Positions 4,829-43,222 of a stretch of 64,000 bases of DNA are shown one piece after another (within the stretch, counting starts at the first letter, position 1; each line of letters opens with the position of its first letter). The stretch is from an uncultured Candidatus Saccharibacteria bacterium (lineage in GTDB: Bacteria; Patescibacteriota; Saccharimonadia; Saccharimonadales; JALRHH01), in the NCBI GenBank assembly GCA_964639295.1, contig CAZXDT010000001.1:117068-181067 (forward strand), in the 5' to 3' direction. The notes under the pieces were generated by a model. The model did not search any database, had not been told where the DNA came from, and saw nothing but the letters and a program-made list of their open reading frames with translations. A program made the translations under genes and the position numbers.

Positions 4829-5773
4829 ATGAGTCCAGATACAAACACGCCGCTCGGGCAACCAACACCCGTAACCGAACCACAAATCGCGAGAGCACCT
4901 GCATATAAGCTCTTTTCCTACGGCAGCATGCTCGTAGGTACCATCTTTGGCAGTGGTTTTGCATTCATATATTTCATGTATAAAAACTATAAGAATATGG
5001 GCATGCTCGGCAAAGCATGGACAAGTATCCCACTAGGACTCCTCGGGTTTGGAGCGATTATTTTTGGCACCATTTTCCTGGAAGACCACACATCCATAAC
5101 GCTAAACGCTGGTTCTGTGAACGGGATATATATAGCCTGCGCAATGTTAGCTATTCGAGCAACCCAGTACGAACGCGTTATGCAACATAAAAAATCCGGC
5201 GGCGAATTTTACTCAGGCGTACGAGTATTTATTATTTCGGTACTCGGGCTGCTACTGGCTCTTAGTACATTCGTAGGGTTGTTACTTATTGATGCTAGGC
5301 AAAACAAGGTATCACTGCTCGACCAACTTTCCATTACCTTATCAAATTATGATTCTGAAAAGCACGATCGGCTTATTAACGAGTTCAACGCCAATGAAGA
5401 GAAGGCGCTGGTAGTAAACGAGCTGCCAAGTACTACGCCAAGCAGTCAGTACATTGCGACCCTCGATAGTAGCGTTGCAATCTTCAAGCAAAATCTGAGT
5501 ATTCTAAACGAGATCCAGGCATTACCAGGACTACCTAAAAGACTGCAGCAAGATAATAGCAAGATGATTGAGTATGTGAATCTACGTATTCAAGAGTTTG
5601 GGTTACTTAAGCAAGAGGAGGTTGAAAAGGACTACGCCAAATACAAGAGTGAAATAGAGAGTATAGGCAATCGTATCCGTGCAATACAAAAGGAATTGGG
5701 CATTGAAGACACTACGCCAGCGCCTGACATGAGCCCGAGCAGCCTCACAGTCGACCCCGACCCATTGAATTAA
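4829..5773 (+). CDS. hypothetical membrane protein with a coiled C-terminal half
   Basis: Track ORF 4760..5773. The likely start is MSPDTNTPLG at 4829. Several hydrophobic helices are followed by a charged region. Confidence 0.5.
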   Translation: MSPDTNTPLGQPTPVTEPQIARAPAYKLFSYGSMLVGTIFGSGFAFIYFMYKNYKNMGMLGKAWTSIPLGLLGFGAIIFGTIFLEDHTSITLNAGSVNGIYIACAMLAIRATQYERVMQHKKSGGEFYSGVRVFIISVLGLLLALSTFVGLLLIDARQNKVSLLDQLSITLSNYDSEKHDRLINEFNANEEKALVVNELPSTTPSSQYIATLDSSVAIFKQNLSILNEIQALPGLPKRLQQDNSKMIEYVNLRIQEFGLLKQEEVEKDYAKYKSEIESIGNRIRAIQKELGIEDTTPAPDMSPSSLTVDPDPLN

Positions 5774-5816
5774 TTGCCAATAACCTGACAGCAATACTTA
5801 GAGATTGGAAGTAGTA

Positions 5817-5843
5817 AACACTCGCATCGAGCGAGTGTTTTTT
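5817..5843 (+). terminator. rho-independent terminator
   Basis: AACACTCGC-ATCGA-GCGAGTGTT followed by a T-run. Confidence 0.6.
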
Positions 5844-5870
5844 ATAACGGAGACATACTATACTAGTGAT

Positions 5871-6668
5871 ATGAAGATATACAGTTGGAACGTGAACGGA
5901 ATCAGGGCAGTTGTCAAAAAAGAAACTTTTCAAAGCTTCATGGCAGAGCACCAACCCGATATTCTGTGCCTACAAGAAACCAAGGCAGAACAGGGTCAAG
6001 CAATAATTGACCTAGATGGATATATGGAATACTGGAACTCGTCCCAGGCAAAAAAAGGCTACAGCGGTACTGCTATCTTTACCAAGACCACGCCTATTGC
6101 AGTTATTAATGACATCCCCGCAGAAATAGCGGATGCCAGTGGCCTTACTGCTGATGGATACGGTGATGCAAATAAAGAAGGTCGTGTTATCGCTGCTGAA
6201 TATGATGATTTTTATGTCGTAACTGCTTATACCCCAAACGCCAAAGATGGGCTAGCGCGCATTGATCTACGGCAGAAATGGGATGCAGCTATGATCACAT
6301 ATTGTGCGCAACTTCAGGAGAAAAAGCCTGTTATTTACTGTGGTGATATGAATGTTGCGCACACAGAAGACGACCTTGCAAACCCTAAGTCTAATCGTGG
6401 CAAAAAGGGCTTTAGCGATGAAGAACGTGCTGGGTTTGATGACTGGCTCGCAGCTGGTTTTATAGATACCTTACGGTTATTCAAAAAGGGTAATGGATTC
6501 TACACTTGGTGGAGCCACTTTGCTAATGCTCGTGCACGAAACGTTGGTTGGCGCATCGATTACTTCCTCGTATCTGCAAGTATCAAGGATATAGTCAAAG
6601 CTGCAGAGATACACCCATCAGTCATGGGCTCCGACCACTGCCCAGTCAGTGTACAAATGGACTTTTAG
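5871..6668 (+). CDS. xth: exodeoxyribonuclease III
   Basis: MKIYSWNVNGIRA, LCLQETK, C-terminal GSDHCPV. Start set at the internal Met of the track ORF. Confidence 0.9.
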   Translation: MKIYSWNVNGIRAVVKKETFQSFMAEHQPDILCLQETKAEQGQAIIDLDGYMEYWNSSQAKKGYSGTAIFTKTTPIAVINDIPAEIADASGLTADGYGDANKEGRVIAAEYDDFYVVTAYTPNAKDGLARIDLRQKWDAAMITYCAQLQEKKPVIYCGDMNVAHTEDDLANPKSNRGKKGFSDEERAGFDDWLAAGFIDTLRLFKKGNGFYTWWSHFANARARNVGWRIDYFLVSASIKDIVKAAEIHPSVMGSDHCPVSVQMDF

Positions 6669-7460
6669 ATGAGCTTGAATGAATACTGGCTCAAGCAGAC
6701 AACGGGGAAGCTACTCTTCCCAGAATTAGAGTGGTCTAAGCCAGAGAATAAACGACATGCAGGTAAGTTGCTCGTCATCGGTGGTAATTTGCATGGATTT
6801 TCTGCACCAGCAACCGCATTCAATGAGGCGGGTAAGGCAGGTATTGGTACTGCACGAGTTCTACTACCAGACGCTATCCAGAAAGTTGTTAAGACATTCT
6901 TGCCAGAAGCCAGCTATGGTCCAAGCACGCCAAGTGGTAGCTTTGCTCAGCGTAGTATTGCTGACTGGCTAGAACAGGCAAGCTGGGCTGACGGAGTACT
7001 ACTGGCAGGCGATCTTGGACGCAATAGTGAAACCGCAATTGTAGTAGAATCATTTCTGCAAAAACACACCGGAGCCGTTACGCTAACTAAAGATGCTGTG
7101 GATTATGTTACTACTAACCCTAGCCATGTACTGTCCCGACAGGACACCACACTCGTCCTTAGCTTTGCGCAACTACAGAGACTAGCTATTAACGCTAAGT
7201 TTACGAGCGCATTCACGTTTGATATGGATCTCATTCGACTGGTTGGCATGCTCCACGAATTCATTACCACGCATCAGTCATATATTGTCACCAAGCATCT
7301 TGATACTTTACTCGTTGCGGTAAACGGACAAGTTAGCACAACCAAGCTCGCAAAGGACATTGATGTGTGGCGCGCTGCTACGGCAGCCAAAACTGCTGTA
7401 TGGTGGCTCCAGCACCCAAACAAACCATTCGAAGCCCTGACAACCGCCCTTGTTGCCTAG
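6669..7460 (+). CDS. YjeF C-terminal/carbohydrate-kinase-like protein (divergent NAD(P)HX dehydratase-like)
   Basis: LLVIGGNLHGFSAPATAFNEAGKAGIGTARVLLP resembles the YjeF_C N-terminal signature. The usual C-terminal GxGD motif is not evident. Confidence 0.45.
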   Translation: MSLNEYWLKQTTGKLLFPELEWSKPENKRHAGKLLVIGGNLHGFSAPATAFNEAGKAGIGTARVLLPDAIQKVVKTFLPEASYGPSTPSGSFAQRSIADWLEQASWADGVLLAGDLGRNSETAIVVESFLQKHTGAVTLTKDAVDYVTTNPSHVLSRQDTTLVLSFAQLQRLAINAKFTSAFTFDMDLIRLVGMLHEFITTHQSYIVTKHLDTLLVAVNGQVSTTKLAKDIDVWRAATAAKTAVWWLQHPNKPFEALTTALVA

Positions 7461-7500
7461 AGGAGGGTGTAGTACAATACACCCCTGTAATATGATTTAA

Positions 7501-7588
7501 GCCGCGGTGGTGGAATTGGTAGACACGCCGGACTCAAAATCCTGTGAGCATTACGCTCGTGCCGGTTCAAGTCCGGCCCGCGGTACCA
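7501..7588 (+). tRNA. tRNA-Leu (anticodon CAA), CCA encoded
   Basis: Acceptor GCCGCGG/CCGCGGT. Anticodon loop CTCAAAA. Long variable arm. T-arm GCCGG-TTCAAGT-CCGGC. Confidence 0.9.
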
Positions 7589-7597
7589 AATAAAAAA

Positions 7598-7619
7598 CTC
7601 TACACGCGTAGAGTTTTTT
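7598..7619 (+). terminator. rho-independent terminator after tRNA-Leu
   Basis: CTCTAC-ACGC-GTAGAG followed by TTTTTT. Confidence 0.7.
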
Positions 7620-7655
7620 ATTTAGTTAAGCGCTACAGGTATAATAGGAATCAAC

Positions 7656-8885
7656 ATGGACCCATCAGATGACGATCAGACAAAACGGTACGACCTGTCA
7701 GCCCGCAATGACAAGGTTATTCAGCCCCTACATGATAATATCCAACCTGCCTCTCCAGTGAGTACTAATGCTGCTGCAGATCTTATCCGTAGCAAGCTCG
7801 ATAGCCTGTTTGCTGACGAACCCAAAGCTAAAGAAGAGATCGCTGAAGCAGAAGTCGTAAAACACCGTAGTAAGCACCAACAATTCATGTATGATCTGAG
7901 TCACTCTGGTAAATCCTTAGCAGATATCCAGACGCAGTGGCACCAATACTATGTGAACCTGCCGAATGACCAAAAACACGAAGTCTGGCAGGAATTCTAT
8001 GCCACACATAATCAAATCAATGTAGCTAAACCAGTGTCCCATAGCAATACCCCAGCTCATCGTGAGGCGCCGCAGCATCCTGCACATGTAGCAACAACAC
8101 ACGACCAACGGACCGCATCAGAAGTGAAGCAAGAACTCCTTGGTCACGTCCGAAAACGCCGCAAACTGACCAAGAAAGACCATTTGCATTCTCTTGCGTT
8201 TGGACTCAGCATGGGCCTAATCACCATATTATTCCTGTTATTTGGATTCTTTAACGAACGATTTATTGCGCCGTTTATTACCCCAAGCCGTAGTGTGAGC
8301 TCAACACCCATAATTATTGACCCGACTAATGCAGCAGTGGGTCCTGAATCTAAAATAATAATTCCGAAAATTAATGTAGAGATCCCTGTTATCAATGACG
8401 TACCCACTATCGAGGAGTCAGCTGTAGAGAAGGGTCTTGAACGGGGAGTTGTGCACTACGCTACTACCCCCAACCCCGGGGAAATCGGCAATGGTGTGAT
8501 ATTTGGCCACTCTGCCAACAACATCCTCAATCATGGCAAGTATAAATTCGCCTTTGTCCTGCTCAAACGACTCGAACCTGGAGATGTGTTCTATATTCAG
8601 AAGGACGGTAAGCGCTATGCCTACAAGGTTTTTGAAAAAAAGGTCGTACCACCAACTGATGTCTCAGTGCTATATCCAACATACCCAGATAAGCCGGCAA
8701 CCTTCACGCTCATCACCTGTGACCCACCAGGAACAAGCCTAAACCGTCTTGTAGTACATGCAGAGCAGATAAGCCCAGATCCAAAGGCTAACACCGCCAG
8801 CACCGCCAAACACACGACTGCTGAGCCGACAGTCTTGCCCAGCAACTCTCCGACACTCTGGCAGCGTATAAAAGACTGGTTCTAA
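7656..8885 (+). CDS. sortase family transpeptidase with a long N-terminal extension
   Basis: TM segment, then a catalytic domain with VIFGHSANN (His), TLITCDPPGT (TLxTC Cys) and a downstream Arg. Confidence 0.8.
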   Translation: MDPSDDDQTKRYDLSARNDKVIQPLHDNIQPASPVSTNAAADLIRSKLDSLFADEPKAKEEIAEAEVVKHRSKHQQFMYDLSHSGKSLADIQTQWHQYYVNLPNDQKHEVWQEFYATHNQINVAKPVSHSNTPAHREAPQHPAHVATTHDQRTASEVKQELLGHVRKRRKLTKKDHLHSLAFGLSMGLITILFLLFGFFNERFIAPFITPSRSVSSTPIIIDPTNAAVGPESKIIIPKINVEIPVINDVPTIEESAVEKGLERGVVHYATTPNPGEIGNGVIFGHSANNILNHGKYKFAFVLLKRLEPGDVFYIQKDGKRYAYKVFEKKVVPPTDVSVLYPTYPDKPATFTLITCDPPGTSLNRLVVHAEQISPDPKANTASTAKHTTAEPTVLPSNSPTLWQRIKDWF

Positions 8886-11866: not shown

Positions 11867-11954
11867 ATCATATTATTGCAACTAGTCAAAATTATTGGTA
11901 CCATAACAGCGTAACTTTTTGTTATTGCAGACGTTATGTGATTTCCCATGTACT

Positions 11955-12295
11955 GGAAGGCCGATGGTGCCACGAGCGAACTAACATCACCCCACGATGC
12001 GCTTGTGTTAACCCCCAGGCCATCGGCCTTCCGCCAACTGTTAGCGAAGCTCCTTCTCCCGGCAGGAGTAGAGTTAGCTAACAACAGGACCGACCGGCAG
12101 CTGTGTCTGTTCCTCTTCTCGAGGAGCTTCCTGTCAATCTGACACAGTGTGCTCAAGCAGCACTGCCGGTCGGTCCGTACTACCAGACTGAGATGAGCCC
12201 GAATGAAGCTTCCATAGTGTGGTTTCCCACACTAGGCACTTCGGTGACCATTGCTCCTCAGGAAGCTTCTGGTGCATCGGGCTCATCTCTCTGGT
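11955..12295. ncRNA. candidate large structured RNA of unknown class (strand undetermined)
   Basis: Perfect long-range stems: 11955-11967/12020-12032 (13 bp), 12087-12100/12163-12176 (14 bp) enclosing 12101-12107/12141-12147 (7 bp), and 12190-12202/12277-12289 (13 bp) enclosing 12205-12213/12261-12269 (9 bp). Only GC-artefact-looking ORFs overlap it. Confidence 0.4.
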
Positions 12296-12435
12296 CGAGA
12301 ATTATTGTTCGAGCTTTCGCTCCAATTCTTCTCCCAACCCACAATCACAAACGTCTGCTATCTTCCAGAATTCATAAACACTTATGACTTGTGAAAGATA
12401 CTTACAAACAGAGGTGTGCTAGACTATATCTGAAT

Positions 12436-13863
12436 ATGAAACCTGTCCGAACTCGTTTTGCACCATCACCAACCGGCTTTTTACATGTCGGAAACGTCCG
12501 TTCCGCACTGTTCCCATGGCTCGTCGCCAAACAAGCAGGCGGCAAGTTCATTTTGCGTATAGAAGACACTGACCAAGCCAGGGAAGTTGAAGGGGCTGTA
12601 GAAGTCTTGCACGAAACCTTGAACTGGATCGGCATCGATTGGGACGAAGGTCCTGACAAACAGGGTGAGTTTGGACCATACACTCAGAGTGAACGCCGTG
12701 ACATTTACCTTGCATGGGCACACAAACTTATCGCGTCTGGCCGTGCTTATGCTGACGTGCGCACCCCAGAAGAACTGACCGCACTCCGCGACCAGGCAAA
12801 AGCCGCTAAGAAGCCATTCCTGGCCCGCGAATTTCGTCCAGAAAATCCTCCTACATGGGAACCAGGCATGCCACTGCGATTCCTAAGCGAGCCAAAGGCC
12901 TATCAGTGGCATGATGCAGTAATGGGCGACCTCTCTGCAGGCGAGGAAGCTGTTGACGACTTCATTATCCTGAAGTCTGATGGGCTGCCTACCTACAACT
13001 TTGCACACATCGTCGATGATGCAGAAATGCAGATCACGCATGTTATCCGTGGCCTAGAATACATCGCTAGCGTACCTAAATACCTGAACTTATACGAAGC
13101 ACTTGGGGCTGAAGTACCTGTCCTAGCGCATGTGCCACATATCATGGCAGGTGATGGCAAGCGCAAACTCAGCAAACGTGATGGCGCAAAAAGCATCCTT
13201 GACTACCGTGACCAAGGATACACTCCTGAGGCAATGCTCAACTTCCTAGCATCTATGGGCTGGAATGATGGTACCGAACAAGAAATCTTTAGTAAGGAAG
13301 AGTTGGTTACTAAGTTTAACCTCGACCGCGTCCAACGTTCTGGCGCCAAGTTCGACGAACAGCGCCTGCAGTGGATGAACGGTAGCTGGATCCGCTCACT
13401 TGACACCAGTTCTATGTACACCCGTTGTCAAGATTTCTGGCCACCAGAGGCCAAAGATGCAACAGAGGACTACAAGATGCAAGTACTTGGCCTCGTCCAG
13501 GAACGCCTCAAGTACTTTGCTGAGCTCCCAGAACTTACTGCATTCTTTTTCCAAGATCTTCCGATCAACCCAGAACTTATCAGTGGCAACAAACAGCTCA
13601 GCAAGCTCGAACAATCAGATATTAAGAGCTATCTGGAGCAAGCAAAATCTATCTTAGAACAGAGTGATTTCACTGCAGAAGAGTTAACCAAAGAATTGAA
13701 CGAGTTATTAGAATCAACTGGTCAAAAGCCTGGCATTTTGTTTAGCCTTATCCGCATAGCAACAACTCAAGCCCCATTCAGCCCAGCCCTTGCTGATACA
13801 TTGGCGGTACTGGGCAAAGAAACCACCCTCCGCCGCCTCAACGCCCAACTAATCACCCTATAA
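12436..13863 (+). CDS. gltX: glutamate--tRNA ligase
   Basis: PSPTGFLHVGN (HIGH variant) and KLSKR (KMSKS variant). Start set at MKPVRTRFAPSPTG. Confidence 0.93.
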   Translation: MKPVRTRFAPSPTGFLHVGNVRSALFPWLVAKQAGGKFILRIEDTDQAREVEGAVEVLHETLNWIGIDWDEGPDKQGEFGPYTQSERRDIYLAWAHKLIASGRAYADVRTPEELTALRDQAKAAKKPFLAREFRPENPPTWEPGMPLRFLSEPKAYQWHDAVMGDLSAGEEAVDDFIILKSDGLPTYNFAHIVDDAEMQITHVIRGLEYIASVPKYLNLYEALGAEVPVLAHVPHIMAGDGKRKLSKRDGAKSILDYRDQGYTPEAMLNFLASMGWNDGTEQEIFSKEELVTKFNLDRVQRSGAKFDEQRLQWMNGSWIRSLDTSSMYTRCQDFWPPEAKDATEDYKMQVLGLVQERLKYFAELPELTAFFFQDLPINPELISGNKQLSKLEQSDIKSYLEQAKSILEQSDFTAEELTKELNELLESTGQKPGILFSLIRIATTQAPFSPALADTLAVLGKETTLRRLNAQLITL

Positions 13864-21977: not shown

Positions 21978-22385
21978 ATGGATGATACACAAGTTACCCC
22001 CAATGGCATCAAAGTACTCGTTATAGAGGATGAGCACTTCATTAGCGAGCTGTACACACGTGCGCTCGGCAAGGCCGGTTATGAGAGCAAGGTCGTCGTT
22101 GACGGGGAAGAGGGTCTAAAAGAAGCTCAAACTGATACTTATGACGTTATCCTACTAGATATCATGATTCCAAACCTGACCGGATCAGAAATCCTAAGTC
22201 GCCTCCGCGCGCCAGATGCCAAGCCTATTCGTGCCAAAATCATTATTGCTACTAACCTGGAGCAGGGTGAACAGGGTCGCGCAGCAGTAGAGCAAAAAGC
22301 CGACGGCTACATAGTCAAAGCGGAAATGACCCCACGGCAATTAGTCGAATTCCTCGACCAATTCCACCTCGAAAACCGCAAATAA
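21978..22385 (+). CDS. single-domain response regulator (receiver only)
   Basis: VLVIEDE, DVILLDIMIPNLTG, GYIVKA. No output domain. Confidence 0.85.
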   Translation: MDDTQVTPNGIKVLVIEDEHFISELYTRALGKAGYESKVVVDGEEGLKEAQTDTYDVILLDIMIPNLTGSEILSRLRAPDAKPIRAKIIIATNLEQGEQGRAAVEQKADGYIVKAEMTPRQLVEFLDQFHLENRK

Positions 22386-22387
22386 TT

Positions 22388-22440
22388 TCACTTTTCGTCC
22401 TTTTGGACTCGTCAGTACGACTTACATTCGTATAAGTGAT
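22388..22440 (-). ncRNA. type III hammerhead ribozyme motif (HH1)
   Basis: Minus strand reads TCACTT-A|TACGA-ATGTAAG-TCGTA-CTGACGA-GTCC-AAAA-GGAC-GAA-AAGTGA. Stem III is 6 bp, stem I 5 bp, stem II 4 bp with G10.1/C11.1. Cleavage triplet is UUA. The 3' edge lies 3 nt from the convergent response-regulator stop codon. Confidence 0.82.
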
Positions 22441-22523
22441 ATTACAAGAAGGAGGTGGTGTTTGGCGTGCGTGGGGCACCAGATTCTGCTTTCGCAAGAA
22501 AATGATGCCCCACGCAGAATGAC

Positions 22524-22868
22524 TCAGTTGAACGTGATGTTCAGGTGGCCGGTACGGCGACGAGTGCTGTAGTAGCCCTCGAAGGTACCACCGCGTGCGG
22601 TGATGCCGTTGGCGTGTGCCTGAGTGGGGTAGTTGCCCTTGATGATCCAGCTTTCACCAGAACCGTCTTCAGCAGCAATACCCGTGACCTGGAGAAACTC
22701 CTCCGAGATTGCCGGGTCGCCACGCAGCGCCTCGGAGTGTCCCTTCACACGGAAGAGCTTCACGACGCGCATGCCATCATTGCCGATCATGCCGATCAAC
22801 GAGAGCTGCTGGAACAGGTCGAACTTGTTGTCACCATCGGTGATCACGAACTTCTCTACGGTAGACAC
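22524..22868 (-). CDS. small GC-rich cassette protein (114 aa), unknown function
   Basis: GTG start 6 nt after AAGGAG. G/C-rich third positions contrast with neighbouring genes. The C-terminus GGTFEGYYSTRRRTGHL resembles that of ORF 38972..39415. Confidence 0.6.
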   Translation of the reverse strand: MSTVEKFVITDGDNKFDLFQQLSLIGMIGNDGMRVVKLFRVKGHSEALRGDPAISEEFLQVTGIAAEDGSGESWIIKGNYPTQAHANGITARGGTFEGYYSTRRRTGHLNITFN

Positions 22869-22889
22869 CAGTCTACTCCTTCTTGTAAA

Positions 22890-22921
22890 GTGTCATGGTT
22901 CTAGAGCCAGACCTCTGTTAC
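22890..22921 (-). promoter_or_regulatory. conserved 5' leader motif shared with the 38918-38949 leader
   Basis: Minus strand reads GTAACAGAGGTCTGGCTCT-N4-CCATGACAC. The 19-nt and 9-nt blocks are identical to those in the leader of ORF 38972. Confidence 0.55.
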
Positions 22922-22978
22922 TTAGCCTAAGCCAAATCACTTATCACCAGATAAGAATATCCCTAAGGATTAACAATT

Positions 22979-23007
22979 ATTATAGCAAAATTATGTAGTT
23001 TTGTCAA
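22979..23007 (-). promoter_or_regulatory. consensus sigma-70-type promoter driving the HH1 cassette
   Basis: Minus strand reads TTGACA-N17-TATAAT. Both hexamers are perfect, with a 17-nt spacer. Confidence 0.7.
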
Positions 23008-23258
23008 TGTTGCAGACTCTGGTAATAAGCATATAATTAAGAGTAGCCACGTGGAGACTGGGCAACCTTTCTTTACGGACTTATACAACTTTTGGCAAGC
23101 ATCCTTCGGGCTCTGTGCGCCACATATACAACTCAGCTTCACCTGTAGATACATCACGAACGGTTGATTTATCTCTAGCAGGCAGCTACAACCTATAACC
23201 CGTTCCATCTGAATACCACACCAGATGTCTTTTGTTTTAACTAAAGAATTACCAGGAG

Positions 23259-23510
23259 TTGTATATGACACTTAACCAAGAAATTACTGTAACAGGCTAC
23301 TACTTTACTAAAGGCAAGAGCTTCCCCAGCCGCGTGCAGTTCGGCGAAGACGAACTAACCTTTGCTGAAATCGGACTTCGCTGCCTCGTTAACAAGGGCC
23401 AAGGGTTAATCGAAATATTTACCATGTCTGATGGGCGCGACAACTACACAATTCGCCATGAACGCGCCAATCACCACTGGACACTACTATCTAAGCGGGC
23501 AATGGCGTAA
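23259..23510 (+). CDS. hypothetical protein (83 aa), first gene of the umuD-like/umuC operon
   Basis: AGGAG precedes the ATG. Its stop overlaps the next start (TAATG). Confidence 0.4.
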   Translation: MYMTLNQEITVTGYYFTKGKSFPSRVQFGEDELTFAEIGLRCLVNKGQGLIEIFTMSDGRDNYTIRHERANHHWTLLSKRAMA

Positions 23511-23860
23511 TGTACCACGACAATATTCCAAAAGATGCGGGGATCTCAATCCATACCGGGTTCCCAAACCCAGCTATTGACGCATCGCTCAAGGACTTGG
23601 ATCTTAACCAATTACTCATCAGCCATAGCGCTGCGACCTACTTCATGGAGATAGAAGGCAACAACTGGAGGTCCTTGGGCATCTTCAATAGTGACCTGGT
23701 TATCATCGACCGAGCTATGAGCATACAACCAAATGATATCGTCGTCTGGTGGCACGAAGACGCCTTTACACTTAGCCATCTACACCAAGTCCCCAAAGAC
23801 GCCGTTGTTTGGGGCGTCATCACCGCTACAATCCATCGGTTCAAGCAGGTAACCAGATGA
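23510..23860 (+). CDS. UmuD/LexA-C-terminal-like (S24 fold) protein, apparently lacking the catalytic Ser
   Basis: GFPNPA...YFMEIEGNNWRSLGIFNSDLVIIDRAMSIQPNDIVVWW aligns to UmuD ...VSGDSMIDGGI..GDLLIVD, but GDSM is replaced by GNNW. Confidence 0.6.
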   Translation: MYHDNIPKDAGISIHTGFPNPAIDASLKDLDLNQLLISHSAATYFMEIEGNNWRSLGIFNSDLVIIDRAMSIQPNDIVVWWHEDAFTLSHLHQVPKDAVVWGVITATIHRFKQVTR

Positions 23861-25191
23861 AACAACCACAAGTTCTAGCCCTCATTGATTGCAACAACTT
23901 CTTTGTCAGCTGCGAACGGCTATTTCGGCCGGACCTTGAAGGCAAGCCAGTTGTTGTACTGAGCAGTAATGATGGCTGCGCTGTGTCACGTAGTAACGAG
24001 GCCAAGGCAATTGGCATTCCTATGGGTGCTCCCGTATTTAAGTACCGCGATGTTATGGAGCGACACAGTGTCGTGAAGTTCAGTGCAAACTTTGAACTTT
24101 ACGGCAATGTGTCGCGTCGTATTACCGCACTCCTGACATCTATAACGCCTCGTATCGAGATCTACTCCATAGACGAGTCATTCCTGGACCTCAGCCAGCT
24201 ACCAATCACCGATTACGAGGCGTGGGGCAGTGAGGTCCGTGAGCTGATTCTCAAATGGGTTGGCATTCCTGTTTCCGTTGGTATTGCACCAACCAAAACA
24301 CTCGCCAAATTGGCTAATTTATCCGCTAAAAAGAACCCAGAGCTAGGTGGGGTATTATCACTTGTGAAAAGTCGTGAAAAGTCCGACACTCCAGATATAG
24401 ATGTAGCCAAAACCTGGCAATATCTGGAGAGAATGCCCGTAGGGGATATCTGGGGTATCGGTTGGCGCCTAGCGCCCAAAATGAGGGCAGAGGGCATCAG
24501 TAATGCACTCCATATGGCATGTGCCAGGCCGCAGCGAGCCCAACAGCTAATGGGCATTCATGGCAGGCAATTAGTCGCCGAATTAAACGGCACCAGCTGC
24601 TACCCTCTAGAATTAGAAGGCAAATTACCCCAAAGCATTGCCTCGACCAGAACCTTCGGCGAAGACACGAGTGACCCGTATGCCATTGAAGCAGCCCTAG
24701 CCACCTTCGTGACAACTGCCAGTTTTAAACTACGACGTAGCCAACAAATGACCAAACGCATAACCCTATTTGCCACTACCAACAAACACAAACCTGGCTA
24801 TACCAGCTGGTGGCGTGAAGTACGATTAGACCAACCTACGGCGGATCCCGGCATACTCATCGCAAAGGCGAGAGAAGCATTCCATGAATTCTATAGTCCA
24901 CAGATCATGTACCACCGAGCAGGGATCACACTCCATGATTTTGTACCTGACAGCCAGCTACAAACTGATTTACTGGGTACTATCAATTCAACTATTCACG
25001 ATAGATCAAAAGACCGAATGCTAGCCTTTGATGCCATTAACCAGCGATATGGTAAGCGGACCATCCGGATGAGCTCAGAGCTGATGGCAAGTCAATGGAA
25101 GCCCAAATACCAACTCCGCAGCCCCCGCTACGTCAGTCGGTGGAATGAATTACCGCAAATAGCATCAACTTACTCAAGTGGCCGCAAGTGA
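23857..25191 (+). CDS. umuC: Y-family DNA polymerase (UmuC-like)
   Basis: ALIDCNNFFVSCE, SIDESFLDL. ATGA overlap with the upstream umuD-like gene. Start set at MKQPQVLALID. Confidence 0.85.
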   Translation: MKQPQVLALIDCNNFFVSCERLFRPDLEGKPVVVLSSNDGCAVSRSNEAKAIGIPMGAPVFKYRDVMERHSVVKFSANFELYGNVSRRITALLTSITPRIEIYSIDESFLDLSQLPITDYEAWGSEVRELILKWVGIPVSVGIAPTKTLAKLANLSAKKNPELGGVLSLVKSREKSDTPDIDVAKTWQYLERMPVGDIWGIGWRLAPKMRAEGISNALHMACARPQRAQQLMGIHGRQLVAELNGTSCYPLELEGKLPQSIASTRTFGEDTSDPYAIEAALATFVTTASFKLRRSQQMTKRITLFATTNKHKPGYTSWWREVRLDQPTADPGILIAKAREAFHEFYSPQIMYHRAGITLHDFVPDSQLQTDLLGTINSTIHDRSKDRMLAFDAINQRYGKRTIRMSSELMASQWKPKYQLRSPRYVSRWNELPQIASTYSSGRK

Positions 25192-25634: not shown

Positions 25635-25826
25635 ATTATATAATTTATTATATCTGGTGTCCACAGAGTAGCTTGTCATGTGTACAATCTGTTAAAACAC
25701 ATAAAGGTATTGCTTATTTTAGTATTTTATGTTATTATAACGCTCGTCTTCGTTAATATAACGTTGATGCACCCGTCATGGTCCAAATTGGATCAGACAC
25801 CACAATCAGTTCAGAAGGGAACACTC

Positions 25827-26360
25827 GTGAAGCGCAAGCTCATGATCGTCAGCGCGTTCGTCCTTTGCTTCGTCGTCGGCATCACCCTCATGGGGAACAC
25901 CGCCGCCAACGCCAAGGGCAAGCCCGCACCGGCCACCGACCCGTCATCGCTCGTCGCCAACGTGTACATCAACTACTCGCAGGACTACAACGGCAACTTC
26001 GTCGTCTACGCCAGCCAGTTCGATCACATGGAGGCCACTGAGTGGGGCTCCTACCCGGTGTTCGAGCCCTGCGCTCCGGAGGTCTGCGGCACGCTGGTGA
26101 TCAGCCACAAGGGCAAGACGCCGACGCTGACGCTGACGCTGTCCAAGCTCGCCACCGAGACACTCGTGTCCGGCAGCAAGAGCTACAGCAGCCCGGACTA
26201 CTCGCAGTACCACTACTACACCTGGGACGGCTCGTCCATCCCGCTGGTGCGGAAGTTCAAGGACTCGGGCAAGCCCGTCTCCGTACCGCTGCAGTACGCA
26301 TCGATCAGCCTGTACCTCGAGGGTGCTCCGGTACCCCCGTCGGGCTCGTGCTGCAAGTGA
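25827..26360 (+). CDS. GC-rich secreted protein, unknown function
   Basis: GTG start after GAAGGGA. Signal-like VKRKLMIVSAFVLCFVVGITLMGNTAANA. Line 26041-26100 counts 42/60 G+C. The AT-rich N-terminal extension in the track ORF is probably leader, not coding. Confidence 0.6.
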   Translation: MKRKLMIVSAFVLCFVVGITLMGNTAANAKGKPAPATDPSSLVANVYINYSQDYNGNFVVYASQFDHMEATEWGSYPVFEPCAPEVCGTLVISHKGKTPTLTLTLSKLATETLVSGSKSYSSPDYSQYHYYTWDGSSIPLVRKFKDSGKPVSVPLQYASISLYLEGAPVPPSGSCCK

Positions 26361-26508
26361 TGTTCTGACGTCGTGGGAGGCAACACCTCAACAGGAGTTG
26401 CCTCCCACGGCTCACATCACCCCGCACGCACCACAATCCCTTCTGAACTATTACACTTTGATTTTTTGCCAAAGAACCCTAAAAGGGTTCTTTTTTTATC
26501 AAGCAAAA

Positions 26509-37461: not shown

Positions 37462-37661
37462 TGTGGTTATTCGACTGGTTATTCCCGACGAGTAAACACG
37501 ACCGCAAAATGTGCAAAGATAAGGTTCGCTACGCAAACGAGCCCGCAGCACTCCAAGCTATACGGAATATCAACCCTGAGCGGAGCAAAAACAAGCCAAA
37601 CCGAGCCTACAAATGCCCTATCTGCCGTGGCTATCACTTAACACGTGCGCCCAAACGGTAA
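37461..37661 (+). CDS. small putative zinc-ribbon protein (66 aa)
   Basis: The ATG overlaps the dprA stop. A Cys in KMCKDK plus YKCPICRGYHLT suggest a small zinc-binding motif. Confidence 0.45.
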   Translation: MWLFDWLFPTSKHDRKMCKDKVRYANEPAALQAIRNINPERSKNKPNRAYKCPICRGYHLTRAPKR

Positions 37662-37911
37662 TACAGACTTTTACAGATATAATTCAGTATAAATACTCTT
37701 GCTTAAATAAGCAGATTGTTTTATACTTGATAGGTTTTGTTGACGGTTTGAGAACATTTTTCTCACCTCCAAAATGCACATTTGACAAGTAGATTGAGCC
37801 GCACAAAGCGAGGCATCGGACCATGGGTGGAAATGGTTCGTTTTCTCGCTTTGTGCCACAGAAGAGCACGTCATTACGCATGATACCCGCGAGAGCAAGT
37901 TAGGAGCCGCC

Positions 37912-38214
37912 ATGTACCTTAAGCGACGCGATCGTGTACTCGTATACGGACCGTCGAACGCTCAGTTTGCACTTCTCGGTTTGAACATTGATCAAACCAG
38001 AGCAGAGCAACTGGAGCGTGTGATCAAGCAAAGATTCAGAGCTGAGATCACCAGTGTTTGGGTCAGTCCTGACGTCCCCGGACAGTTCAGTGTCATGATC
38101 AGTGAAGACAAGTCCCGCACACCCTCGAGCCACCTGCTCGAACGCGTGGCCCGCTTCACACAGTACGACATCGGCTGGAACCCCAATAACACCCAAGTTA
38201 TCACCCGACCCTGA
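37912..38214 (+). CDS. small GC-rich cassette protein (100 aa), unknown function
   Basis: AGGAG lies 7 nt upstream of the ATG. G/C-rich codons. The 193-aa antisense ORF 37900..38481 is judged a GC artefact. Confidence 0.55.
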   Translation: MYLKRRDRVLVYGPSNAQFALLGLNIDQTRAEQLERVIKQRFRAEITSVWVSPDVPGQFSVMISEDKSRTPSSHLLERVARFTQYDIGWNPNNTQVITRP

Positions 38215-38223
38215 AAGGCACAC

Positions 38224-38412
38224 ATGCTTCGACCTACGCGAGATGACAACGGTTACCCGGTCTACGAAGGACGACAGTACGTCGACCTGCACATCGCAAT
38301 CCACGGCTTCGACCCGACTCCTACGGCCCACAACACCACGCCCATCCGCTCTACCAGGAACAACAGTTCCAACGCTGGCCTGGTGAGCTGGTTCTTCGGC
38401 TTGTTCCTGTAG
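38224..38412 (+). CDS. small GC-rich cassette protein (62 aa) with a hydrophobic C-terminus
   Basis: Follows the previous ORF by 9 nt. Ends GLVSWFFGLFL. Same composition as the previous ORF. Confidence 0.4.
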   Translation: MLRPTRDDNGYPVYEGRQYVDLHIAIHGFDPTPTAHNTTPIRSTRNNSSNAGLVSWFFGLFL

Positions 38413-38510
38413 GGACACGCTGATTGCCAAGGGGGCGACCAATACCCACACGCTGCGTGTGTTGGTCGCCCTCGGCGCCACTCTTCAAACCCCGCTCTCT
38501 ACTTGTCAAA

Positions 38511-38577
38511 TTCACTATACGAATAGGGGACCACGCGTCCCGAGTCGTACTGATGAGTCGTAAACGACGAAAGTGAA
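38511..38577 (+). ncRNA. type III hammerhead ribozyme motif (HH2)
   Basis: TTCACT-A|TACGA-(ATAGGGGACCACGCGTCCCGAG)-TCGTA-CTGATGA-GTCG-TAAA-CGAC-GAA-AGTGAA. The cleavage site (CUA) lies after 38517. Stem I is capped by an inner GGGAC/GTCCC hairpin. Confidence 0.85.
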
Positions 38578-38591
38578 ACTGCAATCAATTG

Positions 38592-38833
38592 TTGCGTTGA
38601 AGGCTAAAGCCTTCACCACCTTCTTTTCTGTGCCGACAGAAAAGAAGCAAAAGAGGCTCGTGGCGACATCAAAACGAGATTACAAGTATAACCTGGCTAT
38701 TTGCGTATCGACAGAACGCAAGCGGCCCATTTTTTTATTTAGGATCAAAATGGGCATGCTGTCGGTTTGATTCGCAAATAGTCTGAATACTTGTATCTGT
38801 TTTGCTGAGCCACCCAACCACGCCCGGACGGTT
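38592..38833 (+). ncRNA. unclassified structured element, copy A1 (A-type middle domain)
   Basis: TTGCGT, HP1 TGAAGGC-TAAA-GCCTTCA, HP2 CTTCTTTTCTGT-GCCG-ACAGAAAAGAAG, then GAAGCAAAAGA. Internal helices covary with copy A2. The 3' motif is CCACGCCCGGACGGTT. Confidence 0.6.
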
Positions 38834-38861
38834 GAGGGGATTGTTAACAATATGGTATAAT
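38832..38861 (+). promoter_or_regulatory. probable promoter of the HH3 cassette (extended -10)
   Basis: TTGAGG-N18-TGgTATAAT. The -35 overlaps the 3' end of element A1. Confidence 0.55.
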
Positions 38862-38917
38862 ATATCTTAATCTACGGATATTTCCTCATGTATGTGGGGT
38901 GGCTCAACGCACGTTGA

Positions 38918-38949
38918 GTAACAGAGGTCTGGCTCTGATTCCATGACAC
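38918..38949 (+). promoter_or_regulatory. conserved 5' leader motif (paralogue of 22890-22921)
   Basis: GTAACAGAGGTCTGGCTCT-GATT-CCATGACAC. Confidence 0.55.
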
Positions 38950-38971
38950 CTATTAACAAGGAGGTGGACGT

Positions 38972-39415
38972 ATGTCCACTGCACAAGAAAAAATCGTTGT
39001 CCCTAAAAGACTGGAGATCTTCAAAGGTCCAGGGTTCGGTGAACTGAACGGACAACTGACAGACATCAGTCGTTCGGTTGCATTGGATGGGAAGCGATTT
39101 CCGTTCACGTTCCACGTGAGGCCTATTGATGTGCCGGATAAGGACGAGTTCACCCTTGAAGTGCTGCTTAGCGGGCTTGCTTCCGTGCACGGTGATGGCT
39201 ACTCGTACCGGTTTCCTTCATATGCTGAAAAAGAGCGTGAGTGGTACTTCCGCGGTGTTGTAGATAATTACGGAAGTGAGAGCAGTAACGCTGGGCTGTA
39301 CAAGAGCATCATGTTCGGCGGGGCTGATCCAGTGATCATCAAACAGTGCCGTGGTCGCTACGACACGCACAGCCGTAGTGGCTACATTGAGCCGGGAAGC
39401 TGGAAGTTCGAGTGA
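38972..39415 (+). CDS. small GC-rich cassette protein (147 aa), unknown function
   Basis: AAGGAGG lies 7 nt upstream of the ATG. The C-terminus CRGRYDTHSRSGYIEPGSW aligns with FEGYYSTRRRTGHLNITF of ORF 22524..22868. Confidence 0.6.
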   Translation: MSTAQEKIVVPKRLEIFKGPGFGELNGQLTDISRSVALDGKRFPFTFHVRPIDVPDKDEFTLEVLLSGLASVHGDGYSYRFPSYAEKEREWYFRGVVDNYGSESSNAGLYKSIMFGGADPVIIKQCRGRYDTHSRSGYIEPGSWKFE

Positions 39416-39476
39416 CGTGCCGGGAGGCGATGTTGATGCGTTCGCATCGCCTCCCGCAGTCCCTCCTTGTTAATAA

Positions 39477-39529
39477 TCACTTATACAAATGTGTATTTGT
39501 ACTGATGAGACCAAAAGGTCGAAAAGTGA
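39477..39529 (+). ncRNA. type III hammerhead ribozyme motif (HH3)
   Basis: TCACTT-A|TACAAAT-GTGT-ATTTGTA-CTGATGA-GACC-AAAA-GGTC-GAA-AAGTGA. Cleavage (UUA) occurs after 39483. Confidence 0.85.
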
Positions 39530-39535
39530 CAAAAC

Positions 39536-39759
39536 AAACCGTCTGAGCGTGGGGTGGGCATCGGCTTTGGCCCGAGGAGTGACTCAAAGAATCTGGGCGT
39601 TCTTAAAATATGGCTGTTTGAGGCCCCGAATGGCCGAGTTCCGCATTTTTAGGCCAGATTACTTGAGGTACTTCCCGGAGACAAAACGCAGCACATGGGT
39701 TTTTGCTTCTTTTGGGCTAAGCCAAAAGAAGGTGAGCAGGCATTCATGCCTGATCGCAA
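39536..39759 (-). ncRNA. unclassified structured element, copy B1 (B-type middle domain)
   Basis: Minus strand reads TTGCGA, HP1 CAGGCA-TGAA-TGCCTG, HP2 CTTCTTTTGG-CTTAGC-CCAAAAGAAG, GAAGCAAAAA, then a B-type core (CTGCGTTTTGTCTCCGGGA...GGAACTCG...CAAACAGCCA...) collinear with copy B2. Confidence 0.55.
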
Positions 39760-39789
39760 TCTAAGCTAAAAGGTATTAGAATAAGCTTT

Positions 39790-39963
39790 ATGAGTACAAA
39801 AACACTAATTTATATAGGTATTGCCGTAGGTGGGCTAATCGGGGGCTGGCTGGGTAGCATGTTGGACCATGGCAACCCATTTGGTGCCTGGGGCATAATA
39901 CTGGGCACTGTGGGCAGTTTTGCGGGCATTTGGGCCGGTTATAAGCTCGGGCAGGGTATTTGA
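39790..39963 (+). CDS. small glycine-zipper membrane protein (57 aa)
   Basis: Below the track cutoff. Manual translation gives MSTKTLIYIGIAVGGLIGGWLGSMLDHGNPFGAWGIILGTVGSFAGIWAGYKLGQGI. Confidence 0.45.
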   Translation: MSTKTLIYIGIAVGGLIGGWLGSMLDHGNPFGAWGIILGTVGSFAGIWAGYKLGQGI

Positions 39964-40051
39964 CCGTATTTGCATTCGTAATGGTTCTAGGCTACTCTAG
40001 GACGGTTTGCATATATAAGAACTAACCGTTCATAAGGTATACTTAAGCGTA

Positions 40052-42406: not shown

Positions 42407-42554
42407 TATCACGTTTTGTTGATGCCCGTAAAGCGTCCAAACGTTATTTGACAAGTAGACAAGAAAGAAATGACAGAAGAGTCTAGCTTACTAGGTTGTT
42501 CTGTCATTTCTTCAAGAGAACACCCAACCCCTCCCAGTTAGGAAGCGTGAGTAC

Positions 42555-42890
42555 ATGAAGCACCGCATGACCGAGGTTGAAAAGAAAGTTGCTGATCTGG
42601 AATACCGGACCAGTATTACCTTCGACGAAGAGCAGAACGTATGGCGCCTTACCTGTGAGTCCGTCGATATCTCGACCCCCTCACATCCGAAAACGGGCAG
42701 AGTACCTCCCGAAGTCTTGTGTGACTTCAGAGAAGCTGTCGCCAAGACATACCGAGGACGTCTGCTTCGAGGACAGGTCATCACCGCCATAAGCCGCCGC
42801 TATGAAGAGGCCATCACGAAGTACAAACCCTTCATCAGACGACAAACCATGTTCGACGAGATGCGAGCGGTCGCTGGTCAGATCAGTTGA
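42555..42890 (+). CDS. small GC-rich cassette protein (111 aa), unknown function
   Basis: GGAAG precedes the ATG. The composition contrasts with flanking topA. Confidence 0.55.
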   Translation: MKHRMTEVEKKVADLEYRTSITFDEEQNVWRLTCESVDISTPSHPKTGRVPPEVLCDFREAVAKTYRGRLLRGQVITAISRRYEEAITKYKPFIRRQTMFDEMRAVAGQIS

Positions 42891-42974
42891 TCACGTAGAC
42901 GGGGGTGGGTGTGCACTCGAGTTGCTGCCTCTGGCCGCACTCCTGCGCATTCTCGCCCCCGTCTACTTGTCATA

Positions 42975-43031
42975 TCTTTACTATACGAATGCGTATTTGT
43001 ACTGATGAGATCAAAAGATCGAAAGTAAAGA
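42975..43031 (+). ncRNA. type III hammerhead ribozyme motif (HH4)
   Basis: TCTTTACT-A|TACGAAT-GCGT-ATTTGTA-CTGATGA-GATC-AAAA-GATC-GAA-AGTAAAGA. Stem III is 8 bp. Cleavage (CUA) occurs after 42983. Confidence 0.85.
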
Positions 43032-43222
43032 TAAACCTTATCCACAAGTTGAACACCTAGCAACATCATTTTGTTGTAATATTTCTATGCAATTATTGGG
43101 CAGGGAAGTCTATTTAGTGCTAGAATAAGTGCATAAGCGTGGATGTATTGACTTAAAAACAATATTGTTTTACAATAGTACCTAATTACTTGATATAACA
43201 GATTAACGTAAGGATTATAGTA

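Follow-up and report, generated by a model that had tools for sequence, protein, structure and literature searches.

Hammerhead-terminated small-gene cassettes of Saccharibacteria carry complementary leader and 3′ arms that may close the processed mRNA

Introduction

Why should the last nucleotides ahead of a predicted self-cleaving ribozyme be the exact reverse complement of a segment in the leader of the same transcript? The question is raised by four small-gene cassettes, each ending in a hammerhead, in a 64,000-nucleotide (nt) stretch of DNA from an uncultured Candidatus Saccharibacteria bacterium (GenBank assembly GCA_964639295.1, contig CAZXDT010000001.1, positions 117,068 to 181,067 of the forward strand; hereafter the “window”), and by a fifth cassette of the same layout that ends in an intrinsic terminator. 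The initial annotation of the window had proposed that the processed mRNA closes into a panhandle that hides the Shine-Dalgarno (SD) sequence or protects both ends, on the model of the hok mRNA of type I toxin-antitoxin systems. The reading we favor, and in which we place somewhat more belief than doubt, is that the pairing acts at the RNA level as a clamp between the 5′ and 3′ untranslated regions (UTRs), closing the processed mRNA and, in one class of cassettes (class A), also masking the SD. Prokaryotic genomic hammerheads have been found to flank small, nonconserved open reading frames (ORFs), and their role has been called an open question (PMC6155905). Those in the window are likewise compact, intergenic and situated beside small ORFs, whereas the published cases are mostly type II or phage-associated.

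Complementary arms in five cassettes

The cassettes appear to be monocistronic small-gene units of a Saccharibacteria-like bacterium of the Candidate Phyla Radiation (CPR), and are referred to here as U1 (22868, minus strand), U2 (the HH2 unit, ORF 37912–38412), U3 (38972), U4 (42555) and U5 (25827). Each runs from a promoter-like site through a structured leader, a 5′ arm, a small ORF, a G+C-rich hairpin and a C/U-rich spacer to a 3′ arm, and finishes in a hammerhead (U1 to U4) or an intrinsic terminator (U5). An inverted-repeat search found a perfect complement of 12 to 14 nt between the 5′ leader and the 3′ arm in all five. In U3, the 5′ arm TATTAACAAGGAGG (38951–38964, plus strand) holds the SD and lies 7 nt ahead of the ATG, and the 3′ arm CCTCCTTGTTAATA (39462–39475, plus strand; 14 nt, 100%) ends 1 nt ahead of hammerhead stem III. 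On the minus strand, U1 pairs TTACAAGAAGGAG (22876–22888), which also holds the SD, with CTCCTTCTTGTAA (22442–22454; 13 nt, 100%), 2 nt ahead of stem III. U2 and U4, the two TTTGACAAGTAGA units, make up class B and have arms nearly identical to each other: in U2, ATTTGACAAGTAGA (37780–37793, plus strand) pairs with TCTACTTGTCAAAT (38498–38511, plus strand; 14 nt, 100%), which abuts stem III, and in U4, TGACAAGTAGAC (42449–42460, plus strand) pairs perfectly over 12 nt with GTCTACTTGTCA (42961–42972, plus strand), an arm that overlaps a competing local hairpin; when extended (42446–42460/42961–42975), the U4 arms match over 15 nt at 93%. In U5, AGTTCAGAAGGGA (25808–25820, plus strand), which holds the SD, pairs with TCCCTTCTGAACT (26437–26449, plus strand; 13 nt, 100%); no hammerhead follows, and the arm lies ∼20 nt ahead of the intrinsic terminator, read as a terminator-like hairpin and T-run at 26471–26498 (plus strand).

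Every arm sequence and coordinate of the initial annotation was borne out when the regions were read and the repeats searched independently, and the pairing proved as extensive as claimed, or slightly more so (14 nt in U2 and U3, and 15 nt at 93% in U4). Its placement beside the ribozyme is a direct reading as well: in all four hammerhead units the 3′ arm finishes 0 to 3 nt ahead of stem III, and the predicted cut sites return the same 7 to 11 nt between the 13-nt arm and the cut that had been given before. One point is corrected: U1, U3 and U5 are the only units with the SD inside the 5′ arm, and in U2 and U4 the SD lies ∼95 to 120 nt downstream of the arm. U5, which had been presented as a terminator-ended variant of the same design, is a true member of it. 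Homologues at loci L148/L167 and L164 likewise finish in terminators and have retained their arms.

The complementarity of the arms exceeds chance. Shuffled versions of the 18 nt before stem III, matched without gaps to the 1.3 kb upstream, gave best scores with a mean of 7.8 and a 99th percentile of 10.9, against scores of 12 to 14 for U1 to U4. Similarly, the 5′ and 3′ flanks of 44 ordinary genes in the window matched over 5 to 9 nt (mean 6.6), compared with 12 to 14 nt in the five cassettes. Across the whole window, other perfect 13-nt inverted repeats at a spacing of 300 to 1,400 nt numbered two, with ∼1.3 expected by chance. One of the two, around U3 (38640/39701), was rejected as a cassette clamp because two similar local hairpins (CTTCTTTT..AAAAGAAG) account for it; these hairpins (38620–38647 and ∼39707–39735) follow the hammerheads of U2 and U3 and may represent a repeated 3′ element.

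Compensating changes in homologous cassettes

Homologous cassettes in other genomes keep the 5′/3′ complementarity through covarying changes, the point on which the initial annotation had staked its proposal. Class A homologues were retrieved without reference to arms or ribozyme, either by the leader motif (metagenomes) or by the protein family. In 16 of the 18 class A units with enough sequence, the unit's own 3′ UTR complements its SD/start region over at least 10 nt, in some with one G·U pair or mismatch (locus L169, for example, has 11 bp including one G·U); the homologue at L171 has a 9-nt run with a gapped extension. Matched changes of both arms are observed directly between class A cassettes (CAATAAGGAGGAC / GTCCTCCTTATTG; TAACAAGTGAGAGG / CCTCTCACTTGTTA; TTAACAAGAAGGG / CCCTTCTTGTTAA; GAGAGGGGTG / CACCCCTCTC), with G·U pairs in the arms of L114, L164, L169 and L174 and a 1-nt bulge in L173. 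L117, the syntenic orthologue of U1, shares 92% identity with it and differs most in the 3′ spacer and arm. The SD region has not changed, and this stretch remains complementary to it in a register moved by three bases (AAGAAGGAGTAG in place of TTACAAGAAGGAG). Such sliding of the arm along the SD region causes MAFFT alignments to place units in different registers, which makes a column-wise covariation count meaningless, so register-free permutation tests of self versus cross pairing were used in its place. The 5′ arm regions matched their own 3′ UTR better than those of other units, both by ungapped score (12.8 versus 9.5; P ∼ 5 × 10−5) and by RNAduplex energy (−25.9 versus −20.0 kcal/mol; P = 2 × 10−5, and the same for 16 nonredundant units), in tests that relatedness between units inflates somewhat, to the cost of the clamp reading. 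Because relatives maintain the match between arms by compensating changes, a looped, closed form of the finished mRNA is probable.

Covarying arms might instead serve the DNA, as terminal inverted repeats or recombination sites bounding swappable cargo in a fixed promoter-plus-ribozyme frame. The cargo between the arms is indeed G+C-richer than its flanks, unrelated cargo occupies the same dprA-topA spacer in different genomes, the number of cassettes varies at syntenic loci (L117 has two extra), and U2 and U4 share nearly identical arms. Single mismatches within the arm helices are also indecisive, with eight G·U against three A·C (five against three when one local hairpin is left out), numbers too small to establish that selection acts on the RNA strand and not on DNA. 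Nevertheless, the transcript includes both arms, the 3′ arm sits within 0 to 3 nt of an RNA element (stem III), the class A arm coincides with the SD region, and arm sequences differ widely between units. In orthologues only the 3′ arm has drifted, re-matching the SD in a new register, as repeats recognized by a transposase would not, and orthologue homology runs well beyond the arms, from promoter to hammerhead end, rather than as expected of a mobile element. No transposase or integrase gene was seen in the parts of the cassette loci inspected, the flanks not having been searched for one. We regard a DNA-level role as very improbable.

The L117 locus (5133–8337, syntenic with window positions 22233–25149) carries its two extra cassettes straight after the hammerhead, each with a promoter and with class-B-like arms (AGCTCTCTGTT / AGCAGAGAGCT, with one G·U; AGCTCTCTGTTGA / TCAACAGAGAGCT). 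Both close with different, conserved 3′ modules of ∼130 nt (5840–5975 and 7297–7440) that have no hammerhead core and no Rfam match, and this type of module could be another processing element.

Hammerhead units with and without long-range arms

Long-range complementarity also recurs outside the class A family. For hammerhead units in other genomes with a parsable stem III (n = 97), the best ungapped complement of the 18 nt before stem III was scored in the upstream 1.3 kb: 21 units scored ≥11 (∼1 expected) and 18 scored ≥12 (0.2 expected), so that ∼20% carry a long-range complement. The 3′ arm of these long-range units always lies 0 to 3 nt from stem III, and the arm sequences are highly diverse (L067, TTAAGGCAAGAGAG; L037, TACATAGAGATA; L050, GAACAATCCATC; L051, ACAATCTCTTTCT), including a third class with purine-rich 3′ arms (L051, L071 and L088). 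Many of them pair a leader segment 20 to 230 nt upstream of the start codon, as class B does. Local pairing with a probability of >0.7 at the same spot was predicted in 42% of units without long-range arms, whereas units that have such arms showed it in 20% of cases and control windows in 12%. The tendency of units lacking long-range arms toward a local hairpin directly against stem III suggests that a helix beside the cut is the general requirement, with the leader as one possible partner.

This raises the alternative that the helix merely shields the ribozyme-made 3′ end from 3′-to-5′ exonucleases, the leader being an available partner and the overlap with the SD incidental. Enrichment of local hairpins in units without long-range arms is what this alternative predicts, and it fits class B and the many other units in which the 5′ arm is not the SD; for class B, a purely protective 3′ helix is plausible. 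It fits class A poorly, as homologues always target the SD/start region, including those in which the sequence of the 3′ arm was rewritten. Moreover, evolution could reach a local hairpin more readily, and in these units one already stands 20 to 30 nt upstream, while terminator-ended units own a protective 3′ hairpin and yet keep their arms. As a general explanation, we consider simple protection rather unlikely.

Predicted folding and independence from the ribozyme

Whole transcripts, from a guessed start to the cut or past the ribozyme, were folded by partition function. The mean pair probability of the arm helix was 0.94 to 0.95 in U3, 0.96 to 0.97 in U2, 0.92 in U1 and 0.97 in U5. It was 0.76 to 0.78 in U4, for which the minimum-free-energy fold takes a local hairpin instead. 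Among 12 units elsewhere (median 0.94), it was ≥0.81 in 11 and 0 in L031. The local hairpin of U4 (42892–42922/42939–42969; GTAGACGGGGG...CCCCCGTCTAC) repeats GTAGAC of the 5′ arm and overlaps the 3′ arm, so hairpin and long-range helix are mutually exclusive, an arrangement that could act as a switch. The panhandle envisaged by the initial annotation is thus predicted to close in cleaved and uncleaved transcripts alike; concealment of the SD, the other half of that proposal, extends to the class A family and U5, and not to the TTTGACAAGTAGA class or to many units elsewhere.

The arms do not depend on the ribozyme. They are kept where a terminator stands in place of the hammerhead (U5, L148/L167 and L164) and in L121 and L151, where no hammerhead was seen, and the 3′ arm complements its own hammerhead no better than shuffled arms do (mean z = −0.04, P = 0.86, 20 units). 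From these two observations, the pairing is not primarily a ribozyme switch. They bear on a further alternative, in which pairing licenses cleavage by sequestering a 3′ arm that, left free, would intrude on the hammerhead core or stem II, so that cleavage reports a full transcript or a ribosome-free leader. On reading the sequence, CUUGUCA, found in the 3′ arms of class B, is able to pair with the core's UGAYGAG, and misfolding via the anti-SD arm is predicted for U1 when its 3′ fragment is taken in isolation. The isolated 3′ fragments of U3 and U4, however, fold as canonical hammerheads, and arms persist in units that have none to license; with arm-hammerhead complementarity no higher than after shuffling, licensing was dropped as a candidate and has little probability left. 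Circular RNA formed from one hammerhead cut to the next was likewise rejected, since only U2 and U3 stand in tandem, they have their own promoters, and the 5′ arm is far from the upstream cut.

A model for end-clamped transcripts

Under the favored clamp reading, the hammerhead would cut itself off and leave a mature 3′ end with a 2′,3′-cyclic phosphate 7 to 11 nt past the arm, and the arms would then pair in cis to close the processed mRNA as a panhandle. The helix would seal the new 3′ end, taking the part that a local hairpin would play in most other hammerhead units, and would tie down the leader as well. In class A (U1 and U3), and likewise in the unrelated unit U5, the 5′ arm is the SD region, and the clamp would act as an anti-SD in cis; at a predicted ∼−20 kcal/mol, the class A clamp would be far stronger than pairing between SD and 16S rRNA and should silence or limit initiation on finished transcripts, as in icaR. 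In class B, the chief effect of the clamp would be to hold the 3′ end and the end-proximal leader together, for which the helix of hbs is the closest precedent. What we infer from the sequences is that the ribozyme cleaves itself in vivo, that the helix forms in the cell and that it affects translation and stability.

Besides the small mismatch counts and the inflation by relatedness given above, several points weigh against the clamp. Approximately 80% of hammerhead units of this subtype are without a long-range arm within 1.3 kb (ungapped search), so the clamp is optional and not required. Class B and many other units have their SD outside the helix, and SD masking is therefore not the common function. 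In vivo, ribosomes and local structure will compete with a helix formed across 420 to 1,200 nt, and the predicted folds of U4 and L031 contain a local hairpin that ties with the long-range helix or beats it.

Hammerhead ribozymes of the window

Four hammerhead cores of the form CTGAYGAG...CGAAA were located at 22393–22415 (minus strand), 38550–38572, 39502–39524 and 43002–43024; the core pattern had six matches in total against 0.59 expected. All four units have CTGA[T/C]GAG...CGAAA with T-A at positions 16.1/17. The predicted ribozymes are compact type III hammerheads with a 3- to 4-bp stem II capped by a tetraloop, a closed 6-bp stem I and an open stem III: HH1 of U1 (22388–22439, minus strand; predicted cut between 22433 and 22432), HH2 of U2 (38511–38577, plus strand, with an extended stem I; predicted cut after 38517), HH3 of U3 (39477–39529, plus strand; predicted cut after 39483) and HH4 of U4 (42974–43032, plus strand; predicted cut after 42983). 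Matches to the Rfam family Hammerhead_3 (RF00008) were weak (20 to 25 bits against a gathering score of 48.5; E = 0.028 to 5.8), and the Rfam alignment places U16.1/A17 of the U3 hammerhead at 39482/39483. The RF00008 model is drawn mainly from viroid and plant sequences. Despite the subgathering scores, the core and helices are those of a canonical type III hammerhead, and self-cleavage is predicted; the canonical structure is the minimum-free-energy fold of the isolated 3′ fragments of U3 (HH3) and U4 (HH4), and stems I, II and III show matched changes across the 97 parsed homologues (in stem II, for example, TCC/GGA, TCG/CGA, CTC/GAG and ACC/GGT).

A single exact-pattern scan for the hammerhead core across 185,579 species genomes returned 111 loci (L001 to L111), overwhelmingly from metagenome-assembled genomes (MAGs) of Saccharibacteria and other CPR bacteria, and the same pattern gave only 12 loci (L175 to L186) in a viral collection. 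These hammerheads constitute a subtype (stem I, UACGAAUGUGUAUUCGUA; stem II, UCC-AAAA-GGA) abundant in Saccharibacteria/CPR MAGs and rare in viral contigs, which standard annotation misses because it scores below the Rfam gathering threshold.

Cassette classes, proteins and genomic setting

Class A (U1 and U3) is defined by the SD within the 5′ arm and by a conserved leader of ∼80 nt with three covarying helices, placed by alignment and RNAalifold at 38869–38950 (plus strand) in U3, where P1, P2, AACAGAG and GUCYGG...CCRNGAC are found, and at 22889–22975 (minus strand) in U1. The leader consists of GGAUAUUCCU, helix P1, GUGG, helix P2, an invariant AACAGAG and GUCYGG-CUCU-N4-CCRNGAC, with compensatory changes at 11 of its 19 predicted pairs (12 sequences, RNAalifold). 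It had no match in Rfam even at E ≤ 10, is also present in L020, L114, L117, L121, L124, L148, L149, L151, L157, L160, L164 and L168 to L174, and may be an undescribed cis-regulatory RNA of Saccharibacteria. Upstream of the U3 leader, a consensus scan gave a candidate promoter, TTGAGG-18-TATAAT with an upstream TG (38832–38861, plus strand), as a sequence match only. A G+C-rich hairpin in the 3′ UTR of U3 (GGGAGGCGATG...CATCGCCTCCC; 39420–39457, plus strand) is conserved in several class A units. In class B, the arm follows a small 5′ hairpin and is apparently a few tens of nucleotides downstream of a promoter-like −10 element, judging from the sequence; the SD falls outside the helix because the ORF begins ∼95 to 120 nt beyond the arm.

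The class A ORFs of U3 (147 aa; 38972–39415, plus strand) and U1 (114 aa; 22524–22868, minus strand) belong to one protein family of ∼110 to 130 aa with the motifs GDxKxELxAQLxDIGR, EDGSGxSWxIxG and YxTRxRTG, represented by ∼120 clusters at 50% identity among 1.84 billion proteins. In a word-indexed homologue search the U3 ORF was an orphan and the U1 ORF had only two homologues. Class A proteins are predicted to be soluble, with a mixed alpha/beta fold, and an AlphaFold2 model (predicted local distance difference test score of 66) had no match in the PDB with E below 0.02. The U5 ORF (177 aa; 25827–26360, plus strand) has a signal-peptide-like N terminus. No Pfam, PADLOC, toxin or defense match was obtained for the cassette ORFs, including the class A family. 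G+C content at third codon positions (GC3) is 0.57 to 0.93 in the five cassette ORFs (22524–22868 on the minus strand, 25827–26360, 37912–38412, 38972–39415 and 42555–42890; 0.93 in U5) compared with 0.43 to 0.53 in housekeeping genes, which suggests foreign origin or different selection.

The window is part of a Saccharibacteria-like (CPR) chromosome, sharing 65 to 82% nucleotide identity with contigs of Saccharibacteria MAGs and carrying housekeeping genes for DprA, topoisomerase I (TopA), a sigma-70 factor, Der/EngA, MurG, a penicillin-binding protein (PBP) and histidyl-tRNA synthetase (HisRS). A phage origin was rejected, as no megablast match was found among 50,697 phage records and the genes flanking the cassettes are chromosomal housekeeping genes. 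The dprA-topA spacer looks like a hot spot for variable cassettes: in two Saccharibacteria genomes it holds hammerhead cassettes with unrelated cargo, namely two cassettes and a 57-aa membrane ORF (39791–39963) in the window (37462–40051) and one cassette encoding a 184-aa membrane protein in L037 (3140–4378). Elsewhere in the window, three perfect 13- to 14-bp hairpins stand in a row at 11940–12300 (11955/12020, 12087/12163 and 12190/12277), upstream of an ORF at 12391–13863; the region resembles a structured RNA of ∼350 nt and had no meaningful match in Rfam.

Relation to known systems

Two bacterial mRNAs, icaR and hbs, appear by analogy to be closer precedents than hok. In the icaR mRNA of Staphylococcus aureus, a 3′-UTR anti-SD motif (UCCCCUG) pairs with the SD of the same mRNA and limits translation, as established experimentally (PMC3868564). 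The class A arms, which carry CCUCC, similarly present a pyrimidine-rich 3′-UTR element to an SD several hundred nucleotides upstream, and a 3′-UTR motif complementary to the unit's own SD is found in class A and U5 and is absent from U2 and U4. Unlike icaR, the helix is here a longer and perfect 12- to 14-bp match at the very 3′ end, beside a ribozyme or terminator, in a whole cassette family with covarying arms of which one class does not involve the SD. Regulation of the icaR type also has the pairing obstruct the translation initiation complex and RNase III cut the duplex, a step that the short 12- to 14-bp helix makes uncertain for the cassettes. In the hbs mRNA of Bacillus subtilis, a 14-bp long-range contact of the 5′ UTR with the 3′ UTR modulates cleavage by RNase Y (PMC5737220); hbs is a single, conserved housekeeping gene with a conventional terminator, whereas the cassettes comprise many unrelated small ORFs with ribozyme-made ends.

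Leader and trailer sequences of rRNA operons also pair over hundreds of nucleotides, in stalks that define or accompany end processing and are substrates of RNase III. They differ from the present helix in that here a ribozyme would cut just outside it and the enclosed RNA is an mRNA. In the hok/sok system of plasmid R1, the fbi-tac fold-back closes the full-length mRNA, which is translationally inert. A counterpart would be a lock resembling those of type I toxin-antitoxin systems, in which the closed mRNA of the cassettes, stable and inert, awaits trimming or opening of its 3′ end before it can be translated, and in which the ORFs encode effectors that are toxic or expressed conditionally. 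The likeness lies in the architecture: a 3′-terminal element pairs with a 5′ translational element, the sequence-level analogue of fbi-tac is present and predicted to form, and in class A the helix takes the SD and sometimes the start codon. The cassettes are also small, variable and situated at hot spots. Beyond architecture, the comparison made in the initial annotation breaks down. The ORFs encode 100 to 180 aa and are mostly not hydrophobic peptides, unlike the small (∼50-aa) hydrophobic hok toxin; there is no overlapping mok-like frame; and neither the Pfam, PADLOC, toxin and defense searches nor the AlphaFold2 model returned a significant match, leaving the suggested toxin role of the ORFs unsupported. 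Nothing in the sequence points to an antisense RNA; the only antisense promoter-like matches among the cassettes were weak ones (9/12) inside U4, which do not amount to evidence. Nothing indicates activation by 3′ trimming, which a 2′,3′-cyclic phosphate end should hinder if established biochemistry of exonucleases applies. A hok-like lock is accordingly quite unlikely in our estimation.

The searchable literature contained no link between hammerheads and Saccharibacteria, Patescibacteria or CPR, and no conserved 5′-leader complement abutting stem III. We know of no description of a covarying leader complement in that position.

Implications for CPR biology

Among bacterial mRNAs, pairing in cis between 5′ and 3′ UTRs is known from only a few individual genes, icaR, hbs and hok among them. 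In the cassettes, a hammerhead and a 5′/3′ pairing are physically coupled, and the combination, with covarying arms, recurs in Saccharibacteria and other CPR bacteria on many small genes unrelated to one another; these organisms have reduced genomes, and their RNA biology is almost unexplored. The resulting model can be put directly to the test: the ribozyme would set the 3′ end, the helix would seal it, and the same helix can be wired to the ribosome-binding site. The model comes with a simple sequence signature by which such cassettes can be found. If confirmed, the cassettes would offer a compact natural template for self-insulating, self-limiting expression units. A bolder extension, which we put forward as speculation with a low chance of being right, is that hammerhead-terminated, end-clamped cassettes form a CPR-wide modular system for expressing hypervariable, horizontally exchanged small proteins, with the clamp as a lock or timer: the ribozyme would make a precise 3′ end beside a programmable clamp, and translation would be confined to the time before closing or after a trigger. 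Were this so, many bacterial hammerheads would gain the concrete physiological role that has been open since their discovery.

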